A stretch of DNA of 4,395 nt from a virus (taxonomy: Duplodnaviria; Heunggongvirae; Uroviricota; Caudoviricetes), in IMG/VR virus record IMGVR_UViG_2778261572_000003, positions 1-4,395 of that record; one strand, 5' to 3'. The notes below the pieces were generated by a model that was not told the origin of the DNA, ran no database searches, and saw only the letters and a program-made list of their open reading frames with translations. A program made the position numbers and the translations under genes. Shown here in pieces: positions 1-4,395 of the stretch. Every line of letters starts with the position of its first letter. The first letter of the stretch is position 1.

Positions 1-16
1 CCTCGTTGGTTAGCTA

Positions 17-235
17 TTAACGTGGGTATGTAATCATTCTGGCAATGCTTAATGCCGCTGCTTTTTCCAGCCTGGTGATATCCTGCTCCAGAGCGGACAG
101 ATTTTCAGCCTGCTTAGCCCTGGCTTCATTGGCCCATTTCAGATCCTGCGCTGCATTAATTTTCTGGCGCATCCACTCATAAAGTTCATCATCGGTATAG
201 TCTGGCGCGATGATGACGGGTTCTCGTTTCTGCAT
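17..235 (-). CDS. Hypothetical small early-left protein, 72 aa, predicted coiled-coil or helical
   Basis: Complete ORF with ATG at 233-235 and TAA at 17-19 on the minus strand. A consensus SD (AAGGAG, read from the complement of 241-246) sits 5 nt upstream of the ATG. The protein is charged and helical (DELYEWMRQKINAAQDLKWANEARAKQAENLSALEQDITRLEKAA). The opposite strand in the same register translates to implausible hydrophobic sequence with a stop. Confidence 0.7.
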   Translation of the reverse strand: MQKREPVIIAPDYTDDELYEWMRQKINAAQDLKWANEARAKQAENLSALEQDITRLEKAAALSIARMITYPR

Positions 236-246
236 GTCGGCTCCTT

Positions 247-274
247 GTGGTTAGCGTTGCCTGCTTTTAACCAC
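247..274. repeat. Inverted repeat GTGGTTA-N14-TAACCAC directly upstream of the SD of the 17..235 gene
   Basis: Arms at 247-253 and 268-274 are perfect reverse complements. The 14-nt spacer is long for a terminator hairpin and there is no U-run, so a protein-binding site or mRNA leader structure is more likely. Confidence 0.3.
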
Positions 275-306
275 GTCAGGCGAGGTGGTATCCTCTGAGG
301 GGTCTG

Positions 307-663
307 TTACTCGAGAGGAAATTGGTTATGGATACAATCAAGTTTTCTTGCCCAGAATGTGGTGGCGAAGTCTTTGACACATCCTTTAAGCCGCAGGGCT
401 CTGACAGTTTCGCGGGAGCCATCTGCAAAAATTGTGGTCACCTTGTAACTGAAGATTAGTCCTCGCAGTTCGATGACGAAATCGTTGACAATATCTTCGG
501 TGCACTCACCAGAGACTTTCTGAAATAAAGACGCATACCGCTTAGTTACCGCTCTGATAACTCTTACCTGTCCGGCAATGGCGCTGATGTCAATATAAAG
601 CGCCATTGCTGCTTCTTTGCCGATCCCGTGATGCCTTCCATTCTGATGTTTGACTTCGCCCAC
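307..663 (-). CDS. Hypothetical protein, 118 aa from GTG 661-663 (alternative ATG at 604-606 gives 99 aa); coding status uncertain
   Basis: Only long ORF in 300-800. GTG start is preceded by GAGG 8 nt upstream. It lies downstream of a candidate repressor-controlled leftward promoter at 746-774. Against it: 8 of its 10 Arg codons are rare (AGA/AGG/CGG/CGA), and its C-terminal third is exactly antisense, in codon register, to a zinc-ribbon ORF on the plus strand. The neighbouring 17..235 gene also uses rare Arg codons, so codon usage is not decisive. Confidence 0.4.
   Translation of the reverse strand: MGEVKHQNGRHHGIGKEAAMALYIDISAIAGQVRVIRAVTKRYASLFQKVSGECTEDIVNDFVIELRGLIFSYKVTTIFADGSRETVRALRLKGCVKDFATTFWARKLDCIHNQFPLE
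328..459 (+). CDS. Candidate small zinc-ribbon protein, 43 aa (MDTIKFSCPECGGEVFDTSFKPQGSDSFAGAICKNCGHLVTED), nested antisense in the 307..663 ORF
   Basis: ATG at 328 with GAGAGGAA (313-320) upstream, TAG at 457-459. Two CxxC knuckles (C8/C11 and C33/C36) are spaced as in a zinc ribbon. Codon choice is E. coli-like (GAA, GGT, GGC, CCG, CAG, ATC, AAA). No convincing sigma70 promoter was found in 236-327, and it lies inside a putative leftward operon, so it remains a candidate only. Confidence 0.3.
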   Translation: MDTIKFSCPECGGEVFDTSFKPQGSDSFAGAICKNCGHLVTED

Positions 664-745
664 TGAGAAATCCTCTGTTTCCCCTTAACGCCGGGGTGGC
701 GGAACTTTAGCCTGACAACGATGCGGTTCGTTGTTGATGGAATGA

Positions 746-797
746 ATGGTAAAACTATTGGTTTTATTGGTCAATAGGTAATGGAACATAAAGTTTT
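746..797 (-). promoter_or_regulatory. Putative repressor-controlled leftward (pL-like) promoter with two operator copies
   Basis: On the minus strand: -35 TTGACC (complement of 769-774), 17-nt spacer, -10 TACCAT (complement of 746-751). The spacer contains AAAACTATTGGTTTT (751-765), 14/15 identical to the operator at 1293-1307. A second, weaker AAC-N5-GTTTT site is at 785-797. Tandem TATTGGT repeats sit at 755-761 and 764-770. Confidence 0.45.
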
Positions 798-809
798 ATT
801 TGTGAGGAT

Positions 810-837
810 AAAAAAAGCGCCAAGGAGGCGCTTTTTT
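810..837. terminator. Bidirectional rho-independent terminator ending the repressor transcript
   Basis: A7 (810-816), stem GCGCC (817-821), loop AAGGA, stem GGCGC (827-831), T6 (832-837). It starts 9 nt beyond the repressor stop (846-848). The perfect symmetry makes it usable on both strands. Confidence 0.8.
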
Positions 838-845
838 CATGTAAC

Positions 846-1256
846 TTATTGTTTTTGAATATCATTGATTATGTCGTATACATCGTTTTTTAGAAGATCC
901 ATTTCATGAAGAATGCTTTTTGTGTGCATGATTAGTCTCAGCTTTTCCGTTTCTGGCAACTGATTAAAAAGGGACAATAGCGCCTTTTCTTTGTCGTCAA
1001 GCTGGATTAGTGGTGGTGCATCTTCTTCCTTTGAATGTTCATTTAGCGGCATAAAAAACCAATGTTCTGGTTTTCCTGTTACTGCGGCAAGTCTTTTTAA
1101 TCTTTCTCCGCTGGCAATGGTTTCTCCTGTTGCCCACTTACGCACAGCGGTATGGGACAGCATAACCTTTTTAGCCAGACCGGCTAACGACCAGCCATGT
1201 TCGCTCATTGCTTGCCGAACTCTCTCAGCAAATATTGGATGGTTTATTTTACTCAT
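846..1256 (-). CDS. Prophage repressor, XRE-family HTH, DicA/RacR-like short type without a peptidase S24 domain
   Basis: 136 aa. An HTH is visible at about residues 22-42 (SLAGLAKKVMLSHTAVRKWATGE). The C-terminal segment LLSLFNQLPETEKL resembles the DicA-type C-terminus as I recall it. It faces the Cro-like gene across an operator-rich intergenic region. There is no SD, and a TATACT -10 lies about 7 nt upstream of the ATG, consistent with a leaderless mRNA. Confidence 0.85.
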   Translation of the reverse strand: MSKINHPIFAERVRQAMSEHGWSLAGLAKKVMLSHTAVRKWATGETIASGERLKRLAAVTGKPEHWFFMPLNEHSKEEDAPPLIQLDDKEKALLSLFNQLPETEKLRLIMHTKSILHEMDLLKNDVYDIINDIQKQ

Positions 1257-1368
1257 TTTTTAAGTATACAACCAAAGGTTTCACCAATCAGCAAAACTAT
1301 AGGTTTTGTGTTGAAACTTATAGTTTTTGATGGTAGCGTAGGTGAAATTAATAGTACTGGTGGAAAGT
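1257..1368. promoter_or_regulatory. Divergent promoter/operator region (pRM-like leftward, pR-like rightward) with three related operator sites
   Basis: Operators of form AAAAC-N5-GTTTT: AAAACTATAGGTTTT (1293-1307), AAACTTATAGTTTTT (1314-1328), and a degenerate copy ACAACCAAAGGTTTC (1268-1282, 11/15). Centres are 21-25 bp apart. Rightward candidate: -35 TTGAAA (1311-1316), 17-bp spacer, extended -10 TGgTAGCGT (1331-1339). Leftward candidate: -10 TATACT (complement of 1263-1268) with a weak -35. Confidence 0.65.
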
Positions 1369-1644
1369 ATGAGTAATCAAATTCACGATAAGATCTCTAA
1401 AAAAATGTCGAAAACTGACATTGGCAAACACTTTGGCATTAGCTCCCAGGCCGTAGGCAAGTGGTTCATTAAAGGCAAGGTTCCTGCTGAACGCGTGTCG
1501 TCACTCTGTGCATTACTGAATTGGGAAATTACTCCCCACGAACTTCGCCCTGACATTTATCCCAACCCAACAGATGGACTACCTTGTGGAAATAAGTGTA
1601 TGTCGAATGAATCACTGGCGGTGAACAATGATATTCACTCCTGA
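1369..1644 (+). CDS. Cro-like / YdaS-family HTH protein, 91 aa from ATG 1369
   Basis: HTH (IGKHFGISSQAVGKWF) followed by the HELRPD motif I associate with the YdaS/Cro-like family. ATG 1369 is preceded by GGTGG (1359-1363). The ORF-track start at 1342 (GTG) lies upstream of the predicted transcription start, so 1369 is preferred. An ATG at 1405 is also possible but has no SD. Stop TGA at 1642-1644 overlaps the next gene. Confidence 0.75.
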   Translation: MSNQIHDKISKKMSKTDIGKHFGISSQAVGKWFIKGKVPAERVSSLCALLNWEITPHELRPDIYPNPTDGLPCGNKCMSNESLAVNNDIHS

Positions 1645-2149
1645 GCAGGCTCGCGAGGCTCTGGATGCCTGGGTATGCCGACCAGGAATGACGCAGGAGC
1701 AGGCGACGATATTAATCACGGAAGCATTCTGGGCTCTGAAAGAACGCCCGAACATCGATGTTCAACGCGTCACGTTTGATGATGGCGCGGTTGATCAACG
1801 GGCGCTGGGCGTTAACCGGGTGAAGATATTCGAACGCTGGAAAGCGATCGACACCAGGGATAAGCGGGAAAAATTCACGGCGTTGATTCCGGCAATCATG
1901 GAGGCTATCCGGATAAGTGATTTCAGGTTGTATTGTGAAATTACTGATGGAAAAAGCATTACGTACATGCTCGCCGGGTTAAATAAAGAATATGGCGATG
2001 TGGTGGAGTCCGGTCTGCTTTTGGCAGATCCCGCTGTTGTGGAGCGCGAGACTGACGAGCTTATAGAAAAAGCTATTGCTTTCAAGCATGCGTATCGTCA
2101 GCAATATCAACAAAAAGCCGGATGGAATTATGAGTCTTCTTTTTGCTGA
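1628..2149 (+). CDS. YdaT-family protein (CII-position regulator; annotated in databases as putative toxin YdaT), 173 aa
   Basis: Sits second in the rightward operon with a 17-nt overlap onto the Cro-like gene. The segment KIFERWKAIDTRDKREKFTALIPAIMEAI matches my recollection of the conserved YdaT core. The family call is from memory, not a search. Confidence 0.7.
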   Translation: MIFTPEQAREALDAWVCRPGMTQEQATILITEAFWALKERPNIDVQRVTFDDGAVDQRALGVNRVKIFERWKAIDTRDKREKFTALIPAIMEAIRISDFRLYCEITDGKSITYMLAGLNKEYGDVVESGLLLADPAVVERETDELIEKAIAFKHAYRQQYQQKAGWNYESSFC

Positions 2150-3095
2150 ACGCCCACTGGTTATTAACACGCAGCTGGCGATGAAAATTGGTCTGAACGA
2201 AGCCATCGTGTTGCAGCAGCTGCATTACTGGTTGAGAGATACCGGTTCCGGCATGGAATGTGATGGTGTTCGCTGGATTTATAATACAACAGAACAATGG
2301 CTGGAACAGTTCCCGTTCTGGTCAGAGTCAACGTTAAAACGCGCATTTGCAAGTCTGAAAGCGCTGGGGCTTTTGCGTTGCGAAAAGCTCAACAAATCAA
2401 AGCGTGACATGACTAATTTTTACACGATTAATTACGAGAGCGAGCTTTTAGATGGTGGCAAAGTGAGCGAATCCATCAGGTCAAAATGCGCCGCTCCATC
2501 AGGTCAAAATGACACGATGGAAGAGGCCAAAATGACACGCTCCATTGGTTCAAAACGACACAATGTCATCGGGTCAAAATGGCCTGATGATCTTACAGAG
2601 AATACAACAGAGATTACTACAGAGAATAAAAACACTTCTCGTCCGGAAGCTTCGCAACCGGACATGCAGACGGCTGAACAGGATTTTTTAAACCGACACC
2701 CTGACGCGGTTGTGTTCAGTGCGAAAAAACGCCAGTGGGGCAGCCAGGAAGATTTAGCGTGTGCGCAGTGGATCTGGGGACGAATCGTGAGTCTTTACGA
2801 GCAGGCTGCCAGCGATGATGGCGAAATCATGCGACCGAAAGAACCCAACTGGACTGCATGGGCCAATGATGTGCGCACAATGCGGATGCTGGATGGCAGA
2901 ACTCACAGACAAATTTGCGAAATGTTTGGTCGGGTACAGCGGGATCCATTCTGGGTAAAAAACGTCATGAGCCCGTCAAAGCTTCGCGAAAAATGGGATG
3001 AGCTGGTTATTCGTCTGGGGCGTTCACCTGTACAGCGTTGCGTGAATCACATTTCTGAACCGGACACCGAAATTCCGCCGGGATTCAGGGGGTAA
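2130..3095 (+). CDS. Replication initiation protein, lambda O-like / YdaU-position, 321 aa from ATG 2130
   Basis: The ORF opens at 2076, but 2130 is the first ATG that minimises overlap with the upstream gene, giving a 20-nt overlap. The N-terminal domain looks like a winged-helix DNA binder. The gene contains five 23-bp iterons and an adjacent AT-rich repeat block, as lambda ori sits within O. It is immediately followed by a DnaC-like loader. Confidence 0.8.
   Translation: MSLLFAERPLVINTQLAMKIGLNEAIVLQQLHYWLRDTGSGMECDGVRWIYNTTEQWLEQFPFWSESTLKRAFASLKALGLLRCEKLNKSKRDMTNFYTINYESELLDGGKVSESIRSKCAAPSGQNDTMEEAKMTRSIGSKRHNVIGSKWPDDLTENTTEITTENKNTSRPEASQPDMQTAEQDFLNRHPDAVVFSAKKRQWGSQEDLACAQWIWGRIVSLYEQAASDDGEIMRPKEPNWTAWANDVRTMRMLDGRTHRQICEMFGRVQRDPFWVKNVMSPSKLREKWDELVIRLGRSPVQRCVNHISEPDTEIPPGFRG
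2472..2584. repeat. Five direct iterons (23-bp period), putative prophage replication origin inside the initiator gene
   Basis: TCCATCAGGTCAAAATG occurs exactly at 2472-2488 and 2495-2511. Related copies have cores GGCCAAAATGACACG (2525-2539), GGTTCAAAACGACAC (2547-2561) and GGTCAAAATGG (2572-2582). Core starts are 2479, 2502, 2525, 2547/2548 and 2572. Confidence 0.8.
2594..2633. repeat. AT-rich block with three 12-bp tandem repeats (ACAGAGA core), candidate DNA-unwinding element next to the iterons
   Basis: The ACAGAGA core recurs at 2595-2601, 2607-2613 and 2619-2625 with a 12-bp period, in an AT-rich stretch immediately downstream of the iterons. It encodes the repetitive peptide LTENTTEITTENKN. 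Confidence 0.5.
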
Positions 3096-3101
3096 CGAAG
3101 C

Positions 3102-3848
3102 ATGAAAAATATTGCGACAGGCGGTGTTCTTGAACGCATCCGTAAGCTGGCTCCGCAGCATGTAACCGCGCCATACCGAACAGTGGACGAGTGGCGCGAG
3201 TGGCAACTTGCAGAAGGCCAGAAGCGTTGCGAGGAGATCAACCGCCAGAATCGTCAGTTGCGGGTGGAAAAAATTCTGAATCGCTCCGGCATCCAGCCGT
3301 TGCACCGCAAGTGCTCGTTTGCGAATTACCAGGTGCAGAATGACGGCCAGCGATACGCGTTGAGCCAGGCGAAATCCATCGCCGATGAACTGATGACCGG
3401 ATGCACAAATTTCGCATTCAGCGGAAAACCTGGTACCGGGAAAAACCACTTAGCGGCGGCTATCGGAAATCGCCTGCTGAAAGATGGCCAGACAGTGATT
3501 GTGGTTACCGTGGCTGATGTTATGAGTGCTCTACACGCCAGCTATGACGACGGGCAATCAGGCGAAAAATTTTTGCGGGAACTGTGCGAAGTGGATCTGC
3601 TGATTCTTGATGAAATTGGCATTCAGCGCGAGACGAAAAACGAGCAGGTGGTACTGCACCAGATTGTTGATCGCCGGACAGCGTCGATGCGCAGCGTGGG
3701 AATGCTGACAAACCTGAACTATGAGGCCATGAAAACGCTGCTCGGCGAGCGGATTATGGATCGCATGACCATGAACGGCGGGCGATGGGTGAGTTTTAAC
3801 TGGGAGAGCTGGCGTTCAAATGTCGGCTATTTGAGGGTTGTTAAGTAA
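3102..3848 (+). CDS. DnaC-family replicative helicase loader (AAA+ ATPase), prophage copy, 248 aa
   Basis: Walker A GKPGTGKN at 3423-3446 and Walker B DLLILDEIG. Similarity to host DnaC, as I recall its sequence, runs along the whole length (MKN..., NRSGIQPLH, CSFANY, FSGKPGTGKNHLAAAI, VDRR, GMLTN, LLGERIMDRM, FNW). SD GGGGG at 3087-3091. Start is 7 nt after the initiator stop. Confidence 0.93.
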   Translation: MKNIATGGVLERIRKLAPQHVTAPYRTVDEWREWQLAEGQKRCEEINRQNRQLRVEKILNRSGIQPLHRKCSFANYQVQNDGQRYALSQAKSIADELMTGCTNFAFSGKPGTGKNHLAAAIGNRLLKDGQTVIVVTVADVMSALHASYDDGQSGEKFLRELCEVDLLILDEIGIQRETKNEQVVLHQIVDRRTASMRSVGMLTNLNYEAMKTLLGERIMDRMTMNGGRWVSFNWESWRSNVGYLRVVK

Positions 3849-3862
3849 TTTCATGAGGGCTT

Positions 3863-4258
3863 ATGGCAAAACCTTTTACACCCGAACAGCGGGAAGAGCT
3901 GAAGGCACGAATTATCGGGTTGGTACGCAAAAATGGACGCATGACGATGTCGCAACTGGAGAGAGCGACGGGAGCTGGCTGGCATTCGGTCCGACGCTGC
4001 CTTGTGGATGTACTGGCTTGTGGTGATTTATACATGTCCGGGGAATACGGTGTTTTTGCATCAGAGCAGGCGTATCGTGAATGGCGTAAGACACCGGAGA
4101 AAACAACTGACCAGACACTGATTCGAAAGTTACCAGACGGAGAAATACGCCGCTACGACAGACACCTGAACATAATTTGCCGTGAGTGCCGGAAGAGTGA
4201 AGTTATGCAGCGAGTGCTGGCGTTCTATCAGGGAGATTTTCAGGAGGTGATGGAGTGA
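3863..4258 (+). CDS. Hypothetical protein, 131 aa, with a possible N-terminal winged-helix-like segment
   Basis: ATG 3863 with AGGG 4 nt upstream. Same strand and tight spacing after the DnaC-like gene. Residues 10-55 (ELKARIIGLVRKNGRMTMSQLERATGAGWHSVRRCLVDVL) look like a wHTH. One CxxC at the C-terminus. No family recognised. Confidence 0.65.
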   Translation: MAKPFTPEQREELKARIIGLVRKNGRMTMSQLERATGAGWHSVRRCLVDVLACGDLYMSGEYGVFASEQAYREWRKTPEKTTDQTLIRKLPDGEIRRYDRHLNIICRECRKSEVMQRVLAFYQGDFQEVME

Positions 4259-4395
4259 GGGTGAGGGTTTATATCGCCGGTCCGATGACCGGGTATAAAA
4301 ATTTCAACCGTGAGGCGTTCCACAAGGCGGAAGAGGAACCGAAACGGGAAGGGCATACAGTCTTAAACCCGGCAGTACTTCCGGACGGACTGACA
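4255..4395 (+). CDS. DUF4406-like (nucleoside 2-deoxyribosyltransferase-like) protein, N-terminal fragment; 3' end beyond window
   Basis: GTG 4255 overlaps the upstream TGA (GTGA at 4255-4258), with AGGAGG at 4242-4247. Translation VRVRVYIAGPMTGYKNFNREAFHKAEEEPKREGHTVLNP matches the YIAGPMTG...NF...F...G..V.NP N-terminal signature I associate with DUF4406. The frame stays open to the window end. The ORF track misses it because no stop is present. Confidence 0.55.
   Translation, partial: MRVRVYIAGPMTGYKNFNREAFHKAEEEPKREGHTVLNPAVLPDGLT

Follow-up and report, generated by a model that had tools for sequence, protein, structure and literature searches.

ydfC, a known but uncharacterized gene in the leftward early operon of a lambdoid Escherichia coli prophage, and its recurrent association with variable modules

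The ydfC locus and its operon

The stretch of DNA analyzed here (4,395 nucleotides, hereafter the window) is the immunity and replication region of a lambdoid phage. At its left end lies a 72-aa ORF on the minus strand, which we identify as ydfC. The features of the window are as follows.

1-16, minus strand: intergenic region following the ydfC stop; it ends in GAGG (window positions 1-4), the predicted Shine-Dalgarno (SD) sequence of the next gene
17-235, minus strand: ydfC coding sequence, 72 aa, TAA stop at 17-19 (ORF list and matches to K-12 and PHROG)
241-246, minus strand: SD sequence of ydfC, AAGGAG, read from the sequence, with a 5-nt spacer to the ATG
307-663, minus strand: 118-aa ORF between the leftward promoter and ydfC (PHROG 21318, E 1.4e-65)
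328-459, plus strand: antisense zinc-ribbon ORF overlapping the 118-aa ORF (NCBIfam ECs_2282, 47.5 bits, above the cutoff of 37)
746-774, minus strand: predicted leftward early promoter (PL/dicBp equivalent), TTGACC-17-TACCAT, sigma-70-like (promoter scan)
808-840, minus strand: hairpin with flanking A/T runs, intrinsic terminator 3' of the repressor gene (RNA fold dG -19 kcal/mol, z -7.0)
846-1256, minus strand: short DicA-type HTH repressor, 136 aa (Pfam HTH_3, E 6.9e-10; no peptidase domain detected)
1369-1644, plus strand: YdaS-type Cro (domain scans)
1628-2149: YdaT-type CII-like protein (domain scans)
2130-3095: O-like initiator, with five 23-bp iterons at 2474-2589
3102-3848: DnaC-like loader (domain scans)
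3863-4258: DUF977 protein (domain scans)

It is almost certain that this ORF is ydfC and that it codes for protein within a dicBF-type operon, the leftward early operon under repressor control in a lambdoid E. coli prophage. Transcription would start at the predicted operator-bearing promoter (about 774-746) and pass through an upstream module before reaching ydfC; beyond the left edge of the window a variable gene, DicF, dicB, and an exonuclease gene are expected to follow. The window protein is identical to E. coli K-12 YdfC (b1573) at 71 of 72 residues (99%; BLASTP E 6e-52), the two being of equal length, and RefSeq/PGAP names 100%-identical copies "protein YdfC" (ydfC). The protein also matches PHROG 1744 with an E-value of 1.9e-39, residues 1-68 aligning to positions 1-68 of the 68-position profile. 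PHROG 1744 is a family without known function. The preliminary description of this DNA could assign the protein to no family; profile searches of the kind it proposed give this full-length PHROG match and 103 clusters of homologs. Scans of YdfC against Pfam and NCBIfam gave nothing above threshold, neither collection having a model for the family, and a PADLOC scan of the protein gave no match.

The program-generated ORF list places ydfC at 17-235 on the minus strand with an ATG start, exactly as first described, and the good SD noted for it at that time is the AAGGAG listed above. On the coding strand, the start reads ...ACAAGGAGCCGAC-ATG, and for the six-base AAGGAG core an anti-SD duplex of -7.7 kcal/mol is predicted. 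This is not the strongest ribosome-binding site in the window, as had been claimed: the start of the DnaC-like gene at 3102 (anti-SD score -10.7) and one near 4255/4261 (AGGAGGTGA; -11.6) pair better. The AAGGAG sequence is part of the window-type upstream module, and in most loci, where ydfB lies upstream, ydfC is preceded by GCGAGGAATCAGT-ATG rather than by this form. ORF length proves nothing alone in a window with 47 ORFs of at least 30 aa; ydfC is considered a real gene because it is conserved. No RNA family was recovered when the window was scanned with Rfam, so no RNA element lies over the ydfC ORF.

The location of ydfC in a repressor-controlled leftward early operon, already suggested in the preliminary description, is supported by the promoter running from 774 to 746, by the operator-like site in its spacer, and by the hairpin closing the repressor gene, the promoter itself being a prediction. 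The operator-like site, AAAACTATTGGTTTT at 751-765 within the promoter spacer, is one mismatch away from a site repeated between the repressor gene and cro (1293-1307 and 1313-1328), and the operator motif has six matches in the window versus 0.08 expected by chance. The hairpin at 808-840 lies upstream of the leftward promoter. Against the NCBIfam DicA model the repressor scores 47.6 bits, under the cutoff of 101.

In K-12, YdfC is encoded by the third gene of the DicA-repressed Qin operon ydfA-ydfB-ydfC-dicF-dicB-ydfD-ydfE (PMC5069750; PMC10448788). Like that of the window, K-12 Qin ydfC lies downstream of a DicA-type repressor gene and a leftward promoter, and in close relatives of the window the gene is likewise upstream of DicF and dicB. 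Both dicF and dicB are present in the closest relatives, loci L001 and L108, and would fall past the left edge of the window. Among the tabulated ydfC loci (IMG/VR loci L003-L082, L001, K-12 as L002, and the window), 46 have the order ydfA, ydfB, ydfC, dicF, dicB, and the others are variants or truncated forms. The module upstream of ydfC is ydfA-ydfB in most loci, K-12 included, whereas the window carries a 465-bp alternative with a different SD. Downstream, ydfC and dicF are separated in K-12 by an untranslated stretch of 340 nt; in the window the spacer is of the GAGG form that predicts a gene of the MEFKDLP family, described below. Public annotations differ on the coding strand of the 307-663 region, and substitution patterns there comprise only 17 variable sites in the ORF, too few to favor either strand, with codon-position bias absent.

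The gene is already known and very common, a member of the E. coli "y-ome" whose K-12 product UniProt lists as uncharacterized, and its function has been stated in print as unknown (PMC5069750; bioRxiv 10.1101/2025.03.22.644768). At a threshold of at least 90% DNA identity, 3083 of 5426 complete E. coli genomes carry ydfC; they hold 4302 copies in total, and no genome has more than five. It is carried by the inducible phages Evi, Tritos, and PhiR42_1 and by the PPompW group, and Shigella phage SfIV has an unannotated homolog whose product is 40% identical to YdfC. A specialist will recognize at once a gene carried by over half of the complete E. coli genomes, and as found it has little significance.

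Conservation and predicted structure of YdfC

Profile searching across 1.84 billion representative proteins recovered 103 YdfC clusters at 50% identity, with members in Enterobacter, Yersinia, Edwardsiella, and Xenorhabdus, to which a genome scan added Ewingella and Rouxiella. All divergent members tested fall within PHROG 1744. In every locus examined, the homolog lies just downstream of a repressor gene and reads leftward. At overall identities of 25-45%, three residues never change (M1, W21, and K25) and three others hardly do (E5, P6, and L32); the family alignment shows all six in the window protein. The consensus is M-x-K-x-E-P-x-I-I-A-x-G-x-S/T-x-x-E-L-x-x-W-M-x-x-K.

Among the loci compared, K-12-like ydfC is 97-100% identical at the nucleotide level and its flanks are mosaic. 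Compared with the window sequence, E. coli ydfC alleles have pairwise dN/dS values of 0.3-0.55, and values near 1 are reached only between some divergent alleles. The C-terminal two-thirds of the protein is highly variable, with dN of 0.5-0.7 between E. coli alleles. Synonymous divergence differs sharply along the gene (dS 0.08-0.26 in the first 24 codons versus 0.9-2.3 in the remainder), and we therefore place a recombination (mosaic) joint inside ydfC. Within Escherichia, the conserved 5' end thus reflects in part a shared DNA ancestry. Conservation across genera shows that the protein itself is under selection as well.

AlphaFold2, run with an alignment of 16 sequences, predicts YdfC as a single helix spanning residues 15-69 after a non-helical N-terminal peptide (mean pLDDT 88.7, above 90 in the helix core). 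Averaged over the family, hydrophobicity is most strongly periodic at 3.5 residues, which places heptad a positions at 18/25/32/39/46/53/60 and d positions at 21/28/35/42/49/56/63. The invariant W21 and K25 occupy core positions in the N-terminal half of the helix, and the C-terminal half is zipper-like, with L42, L46, L49, I53, and L56. "Coiled coil", the term used in the preliminary description, is on this model a fair description of YdfC, agreeing with both the predicted helix and the 3.5-residue repeat. Sequence matches of the protein and of the family profile in the PDB are to coiled coils only, designed or natural, with weak E-values, and are composition-driven. Foldseek searches with the YdfC model found no match at E <= 0.001 in BFVD or the PDB, and none in the PDB even at E <= 10, an outcome to be anticipated with a lone helix. 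Enzymatic or nucleic-acid-binding features are absent from the protein. A bZIP-like reading was considered and dropped, as the basic region is absent and N27 is not conserved.

Genes downstream of ydfC and fused modules

We compared approximately 92 loci with K-12-like ydfC: the window, 80 loci from IMG/VR, and annotated relatives. Approximately 30 of the 92, about a third, have a gene that starts exactly 22 nt past the ydfC stop codon and encodes a protein beginning MEFKDLP. In this protein a conserved N-terminal domain (about 50 residues) is followed by very different C-termini, for a total length of 106-215 aa. About 60% of the loci, including K-12, run from ydfC straight into the untranslated dicF leader without a MEFKDLP gene. 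The form of the spacer distinguishes the two arrangements: the 16-mer found 3' of ydfC in the window, TAGCTAACCAACGAGG on the coding strand, is followed 6 nt on by ATG-GAA-TTT-AAA in 29 of 31 loci, and a MEFKDLP gene never follows the GAAG and AAAG spacer forms (58 loci). In strain TUM1881, the best overall relative of the window (98.8% identical over positions 1-3814), ydfC is followed by a 124-aa MEFKDLP gene, then a DicF-like RNA, dicB, and an exonuclease gene. Because of this spacer form and the TUM1881 layout, window positions 1-4 are most likely the SD sequence of a MEFKDLP-family gene beyond the left edge.

The MEFKDLP family comprises 404 clusters at 90% identity, nearly all of them from E. 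coli. Some sources name it Ybl81. A Pfam scan of the family found no domain, and its members are spread over PHROGs 1363, 2151, 6937, and 9419, none of which has a known function. Among phage records, 12 of the 25 with YdfC also carry a MEFKDLP gene, and 61 carry MEFKDLP without YdfC.

The longer YdfC homologs from other genera are fusions with these modules. In the natural proteins P0188, P0202, and P0203 (149 aa, 62-87% mutual identity), a linker joins a YdfC domain to an EFKDLP domain. Other YdfC-like proteins end in modules shared with MEFKDLP-type neighbors. The C-terminus of Yersinia P0151 resembles the C-terminal module of a 135-aa neighbor (38% over 69 aa, E 7e-12), and the extra C-terminal module of a 201-aa neighbor is matched at the C-termini of P0158 (Edwardsiella), P0169, P0176, and P0136 (for P0169, 58% over 43 aa, E 4e-15). 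P0138 matches a 59-aa ORF found behind divergent ydfC alleles in loci L083 and L088, and the same 59-aa module stands behind the MEFKDLP domain in a 133-aa class. The modules therefore occur free-standing, behind MEFKDLP, or behind YdfC.

A single YdfC sequence (at least 97% identity) adjoins MEFKDLP domains that differ by about 50%, and so gives no sign of a co-evolving specific interface. In the AlphaFold2 model of a natural YdfC-EFKDLP fusion the linker is disordered (pTM 0.40), so that the model carries no information on packing of the domains; a Foldseek search of this model against the PDB returned nothing significant.

Possible roles of YdfC

Published work bears directly on the effect of the operon on its host. 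When the K-12 construct Plac-ydfABC-(delta dicF, delta dicB)-ydfDE was induced, growth, CFU, and morphology were normal; in this construct Plac replaces dicBp and a ydfC 99% identical to that of the window is retained (PMC5069750). Rem-mediated derepression of the K-12 operon showed the same absence of defect (PMC10448788). A filamentation screen did recover the region, which also holds dicB and dicF (PMC6206680), and phage resistance conferred by the operon has been mapped to dicB (PMC6832061). In hhalign comparisons, the YdfC family profile gave probabilities of at most 0.4% against lambda Gam, Kil, CIII, Ea10, Ral, SieB, and N and against YdfA, YdfB, DicB, YdfD, and the Kil protein of phage Evi (0.4% for lambda CIII; at most 0.3% for lambda Kil, Evi Kil, and DicB; at most 0.2% for Gam and Ral).

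These data bear on the proposal made in the preliminary description, that YdfC is a host-killing or division-inhibiting factor of the Kil or DicB type. YdfC does share with DicB, Kil, and KilR a small size, early expression, and a place in the same repressor-controlled operon, in common with DicF and DicB. However, it is not homologous to Kil, KilR, or DicB; expressed in its operon but without dicF and dicB, it neither filaments nor kills cells (PMC5069750; PMC10448788), and the region recovered in the filamentation screen contains both of those genes (PMC6206680). The published data remove the host-killing reading, which we regard as largely refuted and to which we give next to no credence. 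The K-12 operon result comes close to the outcome, no phenotype on expression, that the preliminary description had itself named as contradicting its proposal. That no phenotype has been reported (PMC5069750; PMC10448788) is in keeping with a YdfC that has no function of its own, its translation shielding the dicBF precursor RNA from Rho termination or RNase, or the gene merely being linked to dicF and dicB. The 97-100% DNA identity over hundreds of prophages could then reflect recent spread, accounting for persistence in E. coli, and dN/dS values of 0.3-0.55, with some pairs near 1, amount to moderate constraint. This explanation is nonetheless quite improbable, given that W21 and K25 are invariant across genera in which synonymous sites are saturated, that the ORF is kept without dicF and dicB in the SfIV, Xenorhabdus, and Ewingella loci, and that fused forms are conserved. 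A nucleic-acid-binding regulator, either a zipper-type DNA binder or an RNA factor aiding DicF processing, might be read from the dimeric zipper-like C-terminal half with its leucine and isoleucine core, from a weak sequence match to the Max zipper, and from the position of ydfC immediately upstream of the DicF precursor in K-12. Yet a basic region is absent, the N-terminus is acidic (DYTDDELYE) with a net charge of about -1, no HTH or RHH profile matches, and the family is found in phages without DicF, all of which make such a regulator very unlikely.

By position, and by analogy with lambda, the most attractive of the alternatives would be a CIII-like modulator: YdfC would inhibit a host protease such as FtsH, stabilize YdaT (1628-2149), which from the CP-933P literature we take to be the CII equivalent, and so tune the choice between lysis and lysogeny. 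The succession of ydfC, a division inhibitor gene (dicB or kilR), and an exonuclease gene mirrors the lambda order cIII-kil-gam-bet-exo, both genes preceding division inhibitor and recombination genes, and YdaS/YdaT-type cro- and cII-like modules stand alongside ydfC in every Escherichia locus examined. Lambda CIII, an FtsH inhibitor of 54 aa, is like YdfC a small amphipathic helix from a leftward early operon and a non-toxic accessory protein, and the lack of toxicity of YdfC at operon-level expression fits a modulator (PMC5069750). On the other side, the helix of YdfC is much longer, with seven heptads, its conserved N-terminal peptide is distinct, and no sequence or profile similarity to CIII, whose conserved central helix spans residues 14-37, is detectable (the 0.4% hhalign probability given above). 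K-12 Qin has ydfC but has lost the YdaT module, and a CIII-like role leaves the fused or adjacent variable C-terminal modules unexplained; we consider it unlikely. A stand-alone anti-defense or anti-restriction factor, in a Ral-, Gam-, or Ocr-like role, would instead neutralize a host nuclease or defense protein early after induction or infection. The predicted early-left, repressor-controlled expression and the occurrence of the gene in the inducible phages Evi, Tritos, and SfIV are consistent with such a role, and the variable C-terminal two-thirds of the protein together with its hypervariable neighbor fits an arms race. The hhalign comparisons found no homology to Gam or Ral, however, and PADLOC found no match; the net charge of about -1 indicates that YdfC is not a DNA mimic, and dN/dS stays below 1 against the window sequence, approaching 1 only between some divergent alleles. 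An anti-defense factor of this kind is likewise improbable.

The simplest reading, which we tentatively put forward as a best guess, is that YdfC is a coiled-coil protein without toxicity that may serve variable early-lytic modules as a scaffold or adaptor. The protein combines a conserved 14-residue N-terminal peptide (M-x-K-x-E-P-x-I-I-A) with a seven-heptad helix some 55 residues long; it would self-associate as a coiled coil and act early in lytic growth, with its conserved N-terminal face binding a conserved partner. The function proper would come from the variable modules, supplied by the next gene (MEFKDLP/Ybl81-like) or, in other Enterobacterales, fused to the YdfC-like domain itself, so that YdfC-like and MEFKDLP-like domains may be alternative N-terminal carriers for one pool of C-terminal modules. 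Several points speak against a scaffold. The association of YdfC with MEFKDLP is facultative, a single YdfC sequence stands beside widely differing MEFKDLP domains, and the fusion model says nothing in favor of packing; moreover, recombination in a mosaic hot spot, of which the joint inside ydfC is a sign, may have generated the fusions as by-products.

A more specific version, which we hold to be rather doubtful, treats the YdfC-like and MEFKDLP-like domains as interchangeable N-terminal carrier or oligomerization domains of a domain-shuffling system expressed in early lytic growth of enterobacterial lambdoid phages. The at least four hypervariable C-terminal modules would be counter-defense or exclusion "warheads", and stand-alone YdfC would be a split-off carrier acting in trans, that of the window perhaps partnering with the protein encoded 22 nt downstream.

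The recurrent adjacency or fusion of ydfC to hypervariable modules is a new, if modest, lead. It concerns the front of the leftward early operon, which is where lambdoid phages keep their host-interaction genes, and if the pairing of YdfC with these modules is functional, it would represent a new class of early-lytic accessory system beside the well-studied DicF and DicB. The MEFKDLP/Ybl81-like proteins resemble YdfC in having helical N-terminal domains that bear variable C-terminal modules, and the two are found adjacent or fused (P0188-type), but they form an unrelated sequence family and in Stx phages are also encoded at a distance from ydfC.

Mosaic structure of ydfC and the gene that follows it

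Divergence is distributed unevenly along ydfC (17-235). Between E. coli alleles, dS is 0.08-0.26 over the first 24 codons, compared with 0.9-2.3 over the remainder of the gene, which places a mosaic joint inside ydfC near codons 23-25; the variable stretch thus opens within ydfC and runs on into the next gene. A second joint lies exactly at the ydfC start codon, upstream of which one of two alternative modules is found, each with its own Shine-Dalgarno (SD) sequence.

In about one third of ydfC loci, a gene of the MEFKDLP (Ybl81-like) family, named for its N-terminal residues, starts 22 nt past ydfC. The stretch predicted to precede such a gene in the window, and the genes themselves in four fetched loci carrying ydfC, including the two closest relatives of the window (L001 and L108), are as follows.

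Window 1-16: stretch ahead of a predicted MEFKDLP gene
L001 4587-4994: MEFKDLP gene
L108 3120-3494: MEFKDLP gene
L039 4242-4847: MEFKDLP gene
L085 4232-4867: MEFKDLP gene

The family is hypervariable: it forms 404 clusters when grouped at 90% identity, and almost all of these come from E. coli. Its proteins share a conserved N-domain (about 50 aa), which is joined to one of at least four mutually unrelated C-terminal modules. No Pfam domain was found in this family. YdfC-like domains in Yersinia and Edwardsiella are fused to the same C-terminal modules as the MEFKDLP proteins, and in the 149-aa proteins of the P0188 type the MEFKDLP N-domain is itself fused to a YdfC-like domain. In contrast to the Yersinia and Edwardsiella fusions, the YdfC homologues of Xenorhabdus and Ewingella carry C-terminal extensions of other, lineage-specific kinds.

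DicF-like RNAs are present downstream of ydfC in both closest relatives.

L001 3991-4040, minus strand: DicF-like RNA, 45.4 bits (Rfam)
L108 2095-2145, minus strand: DicF-like RNA, 34.1 bits (Rfam)

Both scores fall below the Rfam gathering threshold of 48 bits, and these dicF alleles are therefore divergent and would be missed by default Rfam annotation.

A ydfC gene 99% identical to that of E. coli was also seen on a 2.5-kb contig labeled "MAG: Collinsella sp." (JAIIUG010000151.1). The contig almost certainly derives from an E. coli prophage and was wrongly binned with an actinobacterial MAG.

Repressor, operator-like sites and an antisense ORF pair

The following features were identified upstream of ydfC.

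751-765, 1293-1307 and 1313-1328: near-palindromic operator-like sites, AAAACTATAGGTTTT and variants
846-1256, minus strand: short DicA-like HTH repressor, 136 aa (47.6 bits to the DicA model, cutoff 101)
328-459, plus strand: zinc-ribbon ORF, CxxC...CxxC (NCBIfam ECs_2282, 47.5 bits, cutoff 37)
307-663, minus strand: 118-aa ORF (PHROG 21318)

The operator-like motif has six strand-matches in the window against 0.08 expected by chance. The predicted leftward promoter has one site (751-765) in its spacer; the other two are in the interval that separates the repressor gene from cro. An S24 peptidase domain was not detectable in the short DicA-like repressor, which suggests that it is controlled by an antirepressor and not by RecA-dependent cleavage; control of this type has been shown in K-12 for DicA and Rem (PMC10448788).

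The zinc-ribbon and 118-aa ORFs overlap as mutual antisense partners between the leftward promoter and ydfC, and public annotations differ between genomes in the coding strand chosen here. In the window, a GAG codon has become TAG through a G-to-T substitution at 457, which shortens the plus-strand ORF to 43 aa, versus 66 aa in relatives; the minus-strand ORF is unbroken in all relatives. Substitutions across the pair are sparse, too few for choosing the coding strand.

Presumed replication origin and right edge

The gene for the O-like replication initiator contains five tandem 23-bp iterons (CATCAGGTCAAAATG...) at 2474-2589, which presumably constitute the phage origin of replication. The strongest SD sequence in the window (CAGGAGGTGA, -11.6 kcal/mol) belongs to a gene that runs off the right edge.

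About 4255-4395, plus strand: right-edge gene, GTG start

This start and the 3' end of the DUF977 gene overlap, and in one relative the gene at the same position after DUF977 is annotated as DUF4406.
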